Positions 685 through 23,565 of a stretch of 64,000 bases of DNA are shown here, piece by piece (the stretch's first letter is position 1; every line of letters begins with the position of its first letter). This DNA comes from Cetorhinus maximus (taxonomy: Eukaryota), in assembly GCF_964194155.1 (NCBI RefSeq), contig NC_135909.1, forward strand, positions 15,128,001-15,192,000, read 5' to 3'. The notes below the pieces were generated by a model. It was not told the DNA's origin. It worked only from the letters and a program-made list of their open reading frames with translations, and made no database searches. The translations under genes were made by a program, and so were the position numbers.

Positions 685-1062
685 ATACCCTGTATCTACC
701 CCTGTAATGTAACTGCCCTGGGATTGTTTGATGGGGACAGTGTAGAGGGAGCTTTACTCTGGATCTAACCCCGTGCTGTTCCTGCCCTGGGATTGTTTGA
801 TGGGGACAGTTTAGAGGGAGCTTTACTCTGGATCTAACCCCATGCTGTACCTGTCCTGGGGTGTTTGATGGGGACAGTTTAGAGGGAGCTTTACTCTGTA
901 TCTAACCCCGTGCTGTACCTGTCCTGGGAGTGTTTGATGGGGACAGTGTCGAGGGAGCTTTAGTCTGTATCTAACCCCGTGCTGTACCTGTCCTGGGAGT
1001 GTTTGTTGGCGACAGTGCAGAGGGAGCTTTACTCTGTATCTAACCCTGTGTTGTACCTGTCG
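685..1062. repeat. ~61-bp minisatellite, about 6 copies
   Basis: The unit gggacagtgtagagggagctttactctgtatctaaccccgtgctgtacctgtcctgggagtgtttgat recurs at a ~61-bp period. Confidence 0.9.
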
Positions 1063-1234
1063 TGAGTGAATGGCTCCATACAATTGCAAATCATTTTGCC
1101 TCTGGCCCCTGTGCCTGACCTGCCTGAATTCTGTTCATCTTTGTAACTAAGCATTTTCTCGGATTATGATGCAGAAAAAAAAAAGTCACAGTTCCGATTT
1201 TATTTTTTTTTAAATAATCTTTAGAATTGTCTTC

Positions 1235-1621
1235 CTAAACGGAGTTGGTGTACTTGGTGACCGCTTTGGTGCCTTCGGAGACGGCGTGTTTGGCCAATTC
1301 CCCCGGCAGCATGAGGCGGACGGCGCTCTGGATCTCCCGGGCCGAGATGGTGCGGCGCTTGTTGTAGTGAATGAAGTGCGACGCCTCGGAGGCGATGCGC
1401 TCGAAAATGTCGACAACGAAGGAATTCATAACGCTCATGGCCTTGGACGAGATCCTGGTGGAAGGGTGGACCTGGGTCAGTACCCTGTACACGGAGATGG
1501 AATAGCTCTGCTTGCGAGATTTTCTTCGCTTCTTAGGCGGCTTCTTGGTGACTTTAATCAGCGACTGTTTCGACGCCTTGCGGGACACACAGCCCTTCGT
1601 CGCAGCCGCCAAGTCAGGCAT
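1235..1621 (-). CDS. Divergent histone H2B variant (128 aa)
   Basis: Intact ORF with an H2B fold (QVHP..ISSKAM.VMNSF..DIFERIA.EAS; [21 protein letters not shown]) but many substitutions and a novel N-tail. No 3' stem-loop is visible; AATAAA lies ~30 nt past the stop. Confidence 0.9.
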
Positions 1622-1679
1622 TGCACTCTACAGAGTTTAAAAATGCGGATTGTAGGCCAGACTGTAATCGGTTCAGAAA

Positions 1680-2084
1680 ATGGTCAGGACCAAGCAAACA
1701 CCGCGCAAATCGACCGGAGGGAAAGCTCCCCGCAAACAGCTGGCTACCAAAGCGGCCCGGAAGAGCGCTCGAGCCACGGGCGGAGTGAAGAAACCTCATC
1801 GATACGAACCCGGCACTGTGGCTCCGAGGGAGATCCGCCGCTACCAGAAGTCCGAGCTGCTAATTCGCAAAGTGGCTTTCCAGAGGCTGGTGCGAGAGAT
1901 CGCTCAGGACTTGGGCGTCTTGCTCGTCCAGGGCTCGGCTGTCATGGCCCTGCAGGAGGCCAGCGAGGCTTACCTGGTGGGGCTCTTTGAGGAAGCCAAA
2001 CAGTGCGCCATCCACGCCAAGCGAGTCACCATCATGCCCGAAGACATCCAGCTGGCACGCCGCATCCGCGGGGAACGCGCCTAA
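1680..2084 (+). CDS. Divergent histone H3 variant (134 aa)
   Basis: Clear H3 ([26 protein letters not shown]...[12 protein letters not shown]) with ~18 substitutions and two single-residue in-frame deletions. The ORF is intact and followed by a perfect stem-loop. Confidence 0.88.
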
Positions 2085-2129: not shown

Positions 2130-2643
2130 ACTAAATCAAAAAATAAAAGATCTGTGACCGGCGTTTAGAACAGAAATTAATTCGGCCGCTCAGACTCGAA
2201 TCTCGTAAGTAATCGGCATAGAATTTAAAGCGTCCCACCCCCATGGGAAGTAAAGAAAATGCTGCCTATACGAGCAATTGAGACCGGAGACAGCCCTTTT
2301 CACAGACTGCGTGCGGGCAGATGCAATTGAATCAGATCCTGTCCGGGCGCAACACTCGCTGTGAAACTCGCTTGTGAATTTCTTCATGTAGCTCTCGTTA
2401 TTGCATCGAATAGATTCGGTACTTTTGACATTGATGGATTTACAGAATGATAATTTCTGATATCCTGTCCATAAATAGTTCACTAACAAAAGCGGGAGAT
2501 GTGTGAGCAGAGAAACAGCGCTATTCAGAGAGGGAACTGAAAACACAAGTTAACAAATCAGAAACAGATAAATCCACCGTTACAATAACTGCATCTCTGA
2601 CTCCCTCCTGACAGTGAGCAGCCCTTTCACTGATCCCGTGAGT

Positions 2644-2689: not shown

Positions 2690-3088
<399 letters not shown>

Positions 3089-4276: not shown

Positions 4277-4654
4277 TTACTTGGAGCTGGTGTACTTGGT
4301 CACCTCCTTTGTCCCTTCCGACACGGCGTGCTTGGCCAGTTCCCCGGGCAGCAGCAGGCGCACGGCGGTCTGGATCTCCCGGGAGCTGATGGTGCTGCGC
4401 TTGTTGTAATGGGCCAGGCGGGAAGCCTCACCCGCGATGCGCTCGAAAATATCGCTCAGGAACGAGTTCATGATGCTCATGGCCTTGGAGGAGATGCCGG
4501 TGTCGGGGTGAACCTGCTTCATCACTTTGTAGATGTAGATGGAGTAACTTTCTTTCCTGGATCTTTTCCTCTTCTTGCCGCCCTTCGCGGGCAACATTTC
4601 CTGCGCTTTCTTGGCGCCCTTCTTGGAAATCTGCGCTTTCTTCCCGTTGACCAT
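4277..4654 (-). CDS. Histone H2B (likely start MVNGKK at 4654)
   Basis: [27 protein letters not shown]...[24 protein letters not shown] with a few substitutions (V66L, N67S, A117E) and a stem-loop. Confidence 0.93.
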
Positions 4655-17299: not shown

Positions 17300-17716
<417 letters not shown>

Positions 17717-18406: not shown

Positions 18407-18727
<321 letters not shown>

Positions 18728-20383: not shown

Positions 20384-20776
<393 letters not shown>

Positions 20777-21483: not shown

Positions 21484-21804
<321 letters not shown>

Positions 21805-23424: not shown

Positions 23425-23565
23425 TGTAGAAAGACCGGCGGTAGAGCCCAGGACAAAGCCAAAGCCAAGTCTCGCTCCTCCCGGGCTGGACTGCAGTTCC
23501 CCGCGGGCCGTGTTCACAGGCTCCTGAGAAAGGGCAGCAATGCTGAGCGTGTGGCTGCTGGAGCG
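23425..23565 (+). pseudogene. Truncated H2A fragment
   Basis: Same ATG-less start as the 20390 copy; ends after RVAAGA. Confidence 0.8.

Follow-up and report, generated by a model that had tools for sequence, protein, structure and literature searches.

Replication-coupled deposition of H3 goes with the SAVM motif, and H3.3-type variants carry S31 together with an AAIG motif at positions 87-90. In CENP-A, the centromeric H3, loop 1 is longer, the tail is unrelated, the alphaN region is altered and K79 is absent. Unstable nucleosomes have been described for H3 proteins of mouse and human: in mouse H3mm18, R83C together with R72L opens SHL 2.5, and the particle is destabilised by its loss of arginines (PMC8855299), and human H3.6 and H3.8 are reported to form unstable nucleosomes (PMC10914216). 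The H3 gene considered here lies in a stretch of 64,000 nucleotides of the basking shark Cetorhinus maximus (contig NC_135909.1, positions 15,128,001 to 15,192,000, forward strand), hereafter the window, and its features are collected in Table 1.

The divergent H3 gene and its surroundings

The H3 open reading frame is intronless, has 134 codons and is H3.2-derived, with 85% identity to canonical H3.2 and a full-length phmmer match (E 5e-65); changes were scored against H3.2 (PDB 1eqz_C) and the canonical genes of the same genome. The initial annotation had listed A1V, A7P, P30R, R42E, L48P, loss of T58, LP65-66VA, FKTDLRF78-84 to LGVLLV, DTNL106-109 to EAKQ and K122E, together with two indels that keep the frame and retention of tail lysines K4, K9, K14, K18, K23, K27 and K36. 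All of this is borne out, each deletion amounting to a net 3 nt, and S86G has to be added. At the codon level the best reading of loop 1 is loss of K79 with F78L, T80G, D81V, R83L and F84V. We take R42 and R83 to bind DNA, K122 to lie near the dyad, K79 to be the DOT1L site, L48 to belong to the alphaN helix and L109 to sit at the H3-H3' bundle. An H3.3-type variant was rejected, as A31 and SAVM (87-90) are present, along with S96, instead of S31 and AAIG. CENP-A was rejected as well, since loop 1 is one residue shorter and tail residues 1-39 hold 3 changes. Nor is the gene an unprocessed pseudogene as judged by a disrupted frame, which is open in the window copy and in 14/17 copies overall; its rate of change is compatible with neutrality without proving it.

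Table 1. Coordinates of the H3 gene, its signals and the neighbouring histone genes in the window
Feature	Position	Strand	Remarks
H2B retrocopy (ORF 1235-1621), at upstream edge of H3 promoter	1200..1631	-	in 4/17 copies
Junction of private 147-bp promoter deletion; CCAAT boxes and GC box gone, TATA-like TTTAAA kept at 1636-1641	1625..1641	+	
Divergent H3 ORF, 134 aa, SAVM (87-90) and S96 kept	1680..2084	+	translation, phmmer, canonical alignment
L48P codon	1824..1826	+	1/14 intact copies; also both white shark proteins
T58 deletion junction (3 nt; canonical TCC ACC GAG to TCC GAG)	1851..1856	+	all 17 copies
Inverted repeat, codons 70-85, with canonical left arm; rewritten loop 1 (1911-1928, K79 lost) as right arm	1887..1931	+	
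Histone 3' stem-loop	2114..2129	+	identical in 17/17 copies; Rfam RF00032, 41 bits
Histone downstream element, private G>T in window copy	2146..2154	+	intact in 16/17 copies
Cassette H2A, private G29D in window copy	2690..3079	-	beside all 17 copies
Cassette H2B	4277..4654	-	within the 9 kb fetched for 6/17 copies

The window copy shares with replication-dependent H3 genes the lack of introns, the clustering, the stem-loop and, with one change, the downstream element; the CCAAT/GC-box promoter of such genes is found in the sister copies and not in the window copy, where the deletion leaves the start codons of H2B and H3 just 58 bp apart. Of the other copies examined, 15/15 retain TATA, GC box and proximal CCAAT. 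Over 108 nt of proximal promoter these copies show 7 changes, with 9.8 expected (P=0.24), and neither promoter nor 3' signals are more conserved than spacer DNA. A loss of 31 nt of leader relative to canonical genes is common to all copies. With three private lesions (the 147-bp deletion, L48P and the G>T in the downstream element) the window copy is the most damaged of the intact copies and, having lost its CCAAT and GC boxes, it is likely to be silent or weak.

The neighbouring H2B had been put forward as a partner of the H3. It is an inserted retrocopy that accompanies just 4/17 copies, and co-evolution of the two was rejected on these grounds. The retrocopied H2B (ending KYTNSV) is divergent and spread over many chromosomes, and its copies end soon after the stop codon with short A-rich ends and, in many cases, flanking duplications (L018-L030); a parent-like copy with a stem-loop is represented by L023. 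A query with H2B plus H3 returned 1,502 first-look candidates. Upstream of the H2B retrocopy, in a block inserted in the subfamily of the window copy, a tandem repeat of about 64 bp occupies window positions 690-1070. On the other side of H3, the cassette H2A ends in SAERSQRK in all 17 copies, the SQ lying four residues from the end as in H2A.X, and its omega is 0.33 by IQ-TREE (range 0.33-0.5). A dead 3' remnant of H4 (41 codons) is found upstream of all 14 intact copies. Non-canonical or truncated H2A/H4 copies also occur at 17309-17716, 18407-18718, 20393-20752, 21484-21795 and 23431-23565, so that decaying histone copies are common in the window. Nine tRNA-family matches at 19471-54605 are interspersed with histone genes and repeated blocks, and tRNA genes among histone genes are reported alike for a stingray cluster (10.1101/2025.06.08.657570).

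Copies in the basking shark and occurrence beyond it

A pattern laid over the T58 junction gave 19 matches in the Cetorhinus genome, 17 of them H3 loci and 2 unrelated. Fifteen of the loci are on contig C32 and the other two, which may be duplicates, on small contigs. The frame is open in 14/17 copies and broken in three, by insertions in two and by a 49-nt deletion in one. The insertions are 2.4-2.5 kb long, with poly(A) and target duplication, and their label as LINEs rests on these two features and on long open frames. The LINE-like copies sit at the same loop-1 base, one in L070 (3056-5460) and two in tandem in L072 (3051-5585), with different 5' ends and duplication lengths; closely spaced repeats of the 3' end of that LINE are found elsewhere too. 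Targeting of the LINE to the new loop-1 sequence was rejected, as exact 3' ends number 1,695 in the genome and a sample of 30 flanks revealed no common motif. A 136-aa NCBI model named 'H3.2-like' (P0040, XP_078389063.1) carries LSKKVLLA; it is likely an artefact of annotation, probably produced by splicing across the LINE insertion in a broken copy. One further copy lacks the H3 stop codon, giving 4 extra residues, and another the H2A start codon (L041 / L059).

A general H3 pattern has 236 matches genome-wide. Sixty other cluster H3 loci, drawn from 100 listed matches and biased to intact genes because pattern matches were exact, comprise 54 exact H3.2, 5 with one or two changes and 1 with a damaged start. 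As these loci are mostly exact H3.2, the divergent lineage is a distinct clade and not general noise. A1V, P30R, R42E, T58 loss, P66A, K79 loss, D81V, R83L, D106E and N108K are fixed in 14/14 intact copies. L48P and L109Q, which had also been listed as changes of the variant, hold for the window copy and fall away as family traits, being found in 1/14 and 5/14 intact copies, respectively. K37N is seen in 5/14 intact copies, and the 3 broken copies have K18R. The commonest form of the family is an 8-copy type, and the predicted peptide forms include EIAQDFSVLLAQG. Four subfamilies can be distinguished, with spacer DNA divergence up to 5%. Canonical codons for A7, P30, S86 and K122 are restored in single subfamilies, so that copies are mosaic, which suggests gene conversion and makes tree-based omega approximate. 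Members of one subfamily agree at 98-99.5% through most of the 9 kb used for comparison; the H3 gene has thus been copied as a passenger of large duplications, in which broken copies persist.

The initial annotation had allowed that the substitutions might be private to this assembly or species. They are carried by 17 copies here, and two proteins of the white shark Carcharodon carcharias have both indels. Among the best 120 of 8,000 candidates per protein search, named proteins of the lineage come from Cetorhinus maximus and Carcharodon carcharias only. Their NCBI models are called 'histone H3, embryonic-like' (e.g., XP_078388947.1 in Cetorhinus, XP_041037801.1 and XP_041037802.1 in Carcharodon carcharias) and belong to the same lineage, having T58 loss and a shortened loop 1 in common with the window H3; the name is automatic and no tie to embryonic expression was seen. 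In both white shark proteins T58 is absent and loop 1 reads LSVLLV. Unlike the Cetorhinus family they keep A1, R42, D106 and N108 and have E59K, R63H, Q68L and R69S added. A skate match (P0157) was rejected as a member, being near-canonical with T58 and K79.

With a sister copy as reference, sequencing contigs of four organisms (A-D) were also compared. One contig of organism D bridges the T58 site gap-free with flanks of 46 and 64 letters, and another is gap-free over loop 1, with 26 letters on its left, below the 31-letter bar. Variant-type contigs of organism B have a 4-nt insertion in the gene that shifts the frame (depth 674/715); besides this insertion its record 31 shows 2 differences from a variant copy and no gap at T58, past which it reaches just 26 letters, again below the 31-letter bar. 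Contigs of organisms A and C reach the spacer of the cassette and not the diagnostic stretch, which is no sign of absence. Spacer contigs of other organisms are about 7% different from the reference (28/377; 7/98). The lineage is older than the split between basking and white sharks, which belong to two families. No description of it was found among the papers listed for H3 variants of sharks and Lamniformes, in a collection with few subscription papers; a preprint dealing with hypermutability of histone genes yielded no passage about sharks, and the H2B variants treated in the available text of PMC8857922, retroposed and of fast turnover, do not include the shark family.

Mutational origin and selection

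Loop 1 of the window copy has 9 differences in 21 nt, a clustering with p=0.002 in 20,000 random placements, and in 5 copies tested the count is 8-9 over the same length (p=0.0003-0.012). Codons 70-76, immediately upstream, can pair with the new sequence, the arms differing by three gap letters. The hairpin is calculated at -14.8 kcal/mol for the L070 type, -11.2 for the 8-copy type and -9.5 for the window copy, against -6.7 for the canonical sequence. Compared with 3,000 canonical patches given an equal count of random changes and a 3-nt deletion, the respective values of p are 0.0003, 0.005 and 0.027, in a test chosen after inspection of the sequence and with imperfect pairing of the arms. 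Shuffling gave z of -4.75 (L070 type) and -3.26 against -0.56 for canonical. When the L070 patch is matched in reverse complement to the entire canonical gene, the arm of codons 70-76 comes out best, and the reverse-complement score alone has p=0.005 for the L070 type and 0.06 and 0.20 for the other two types. Template switching, by homogenisation of arms, is described in PMC8604942 as a source of clustered nonsynonymous changes without selection, in yeast at up to five neighbouring residues. The rewritten loop 1 is probably the scar of one such template switch. The loss of T58 is located in a TCC ACC repeat, a site typical of slippage, by which we infer it to have arisen.

Selection on the family is hard to discern. 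The 14 intact copies have 21 nonsynonymous and 11 synonymous changes, i.e., an omega of 0.68 (p=0.32 against neutrality; p-values against omega=1 are binomial), and with 32 changes in total power against weak purifying selection is low. IQ-TREE with GY94 gave 0.69 for 8 distinct variant alleles and 0.013 for 41 canonical alleles, and counts in 63 canonical-type coding sequences (of 65 loci, 2 not being extractable) were 4 nonsynonymous and 58 synonymous, omega 0.024. Nonsynonymous density in the family is 0.071 per site against 0.089 in the H3-H2A spacer. Were the family to change at the rate of the spacer, 1.5 stop codons would be expected in it, and the probability of having none is 0.23, so little weight attaches to the open frames. 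Mutation is slow in sharks, with 7e-10 per base per generation in the epaulette shark (PMC10587355). Relative to canonical genes the window copy has an omega of 0.59 (p=0.12) that falls to 0.46 (p=0.07) once loop 1 is left out, and copies generally 0.44-0.58 outside loop 1 (p=0.07-0.18). The value outside loop 1 of the window copy is the best hint of constraint, in a count that includes synonymous change on the canonical side. Every point estimate is below 1 (0.44-0.69), and an omega near 0.7 can also be expected from a mixture of positive and purifying selection. Survival of all seven tail lysines by chance has P 0.27-0.36; this, with K37N and K18R in the copies named above, led us to reject their selective keeping. 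The view that the substitutions reflect a variant rather than random decay is therefore not upheld: an omega of about 0.7 does not differ from 1, lysine retention is at chance level and the loop-1 cluster has a mutational explanation.

Competing explanations and known H3 systems

It seems probable to us that the H3.2-derived lineage is a non-essential offshoot under relaxed constraint, evolving at a near-neutral rate, with a loop 1 that probably stems from a single template switch. Before basking and white sharks separated, one canonical H3.2 gene would have been freed of constraint, with some 200 redundant canonical genes to cover for it, and would then have undergone the slippage deletion of T58, a fold-back copying of codons 70-76 over loop 1 that removed K79 and R83, and the 31-nt loss of leader. 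It would next have been copied passively inside large segmental duplications, along with the dead H4 fragment and H2A, with most frames kept open by the slow mutation of sharks and probably also by gene conversion in patches. Promoter-intact copies may still be transcribed in S phase. If protein is made, it would likely be a weak binder of DNA, with no methylatable residue at position 79, and be far outnumbered by canonical H3. The evidence fits relaxed constraint with one templated mutation better than a designed variant. Counted against drift are the omegas, all below 1, the 14/17 frames without premature stop, frame-keeping indels on the stem, the stem-loop invariant in 17/17 and promoter elements kept in 15/15 other copies, as well as the existence of two white shark proteins with intact sequence, even if only open frames are to be seen in a protein database.

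Mackerel sharks could instead possess in this family a functional, replication-coupled H3 that evolves fast, is devoid of K79 and R83 and makes nucleosomes looser, probably in the germ line or the embryo, and this would hold even if the window copy is not functional. Both indels are common to two shark families, 14/17 frames are open, ten differences are fixed in 14/14 intact copies, promoter and 3' signals and SAVM are kept, and arginine losses including R83C destabilise nucleosomes of mouse H3mm18 (PMC8855299). We nevertheless consider such a function possible but unlikely: omega does not differ from 1, broken copies and dead H4 were amplified alongside intact ones, organism B has a frameshift, and the white shark proteins, with E59K, R63H, Q68L and R69S added and R42E and N108K absent, leave no stable variant signature outside the indels and the loop. 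A fuller version, in which a multi-copy replication-coupled variant with loop 1 rewritten in one template switch (K79 and R83 deleted) is expressed from promoter-intact copies and forms unstable nucleosomes that DOT1L cannot mark, we likewise regard as doubtful. Two frame-keeping indels on the stem and an omega of 0.44-0.58 outside loop 1 might also point to a gene selected on the lamniform stem that has lost constraint since; as these indels fit CC microhomology and fold-back repair, 31 nt of leader went on the same stem and the omega comparison includes canonical-side synonymous change, we find this improbable. That the family is an artefact of assembly or sequencing is hardly credible: its four subfamilies differ by up to 5% in spacer DNA, a second species has named proteins of the lineage, and contigs from independent runs are gap-free at the indels. 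Two of the 17 copies, on small contigs, may still be duplicates, and the private 147-bp deletion is as read from the assembly.

The initial annotation had spoken of a nucleosome-destabilising, DOT1L-blind variant. The part of this that stands is that K79 is missing in 14/14 intact copies and that weak nucleosomes are likely if protein is made; the preference for selection over decay does not. The lost contact residues and the instability of H3mm18, H3.6 and H3.8 indicate that the protein, if made, is likely a poor nucleosome builder on which K79 methylation is not possible, and this consequence holds under drift as under selection. SAVM being kept, any deposition would be replication-coupled. 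Under relaxed constraint the family would be a clear case of a striking histone 'variant' without selection, through redundancy, a template-switch patch and passive duplication, and a warning that copies of this kind are included when histone genes of sharks are counted or labelled 'embryonic-like'. If functional, it would offer a vertebrate H3 that naturally lacks K79 and R83 and is deposited by the S-phase route, allowing a direct test of the roles of K79 methylation and loop-1 DNA contacts; on the fuller version, it would be a natural vertebrate K79-null histone, founded by a single fold-back mutation.

H3mm18 and other mouse H3mm proteins are similar in being lineage-restricted H3 paralogues with about a dozen changes and loss of DNA-binding arginines including R83 (PMC8855299). 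H3mm18 is, however, H3.3-derived, lies outside the clusters, has no indel among its listed differences and comes with expression and structure data, whereas the shark family is H3.2-derived and multi-copy. Human H3.6, H3.7 and H3.8 are also young divergent H3 genes, H3.7 deriving from replication-coupled H3.1 (PMC10914216); the shark family is not orthologous to them and has 17 copies and a loop-1 patch resembling a template switch. With CENP-A it shares an altered loop 1 and alphaN region and the absence of K79, but has a shorter loop 1 and a tail that is 92% canonical. The closest likeness is to canonical H3.2 (in the same genome L050-L054, L073-L132), with which the family has in common the intronless and clustered organisation, stem-loop and downstream element, a CCAAT/GC/TATA promoter, SAVM and S96, and from which it differs in two deletions, the lack of K79 and R83 and an omega of about 0.7 against 0.01-0.02.
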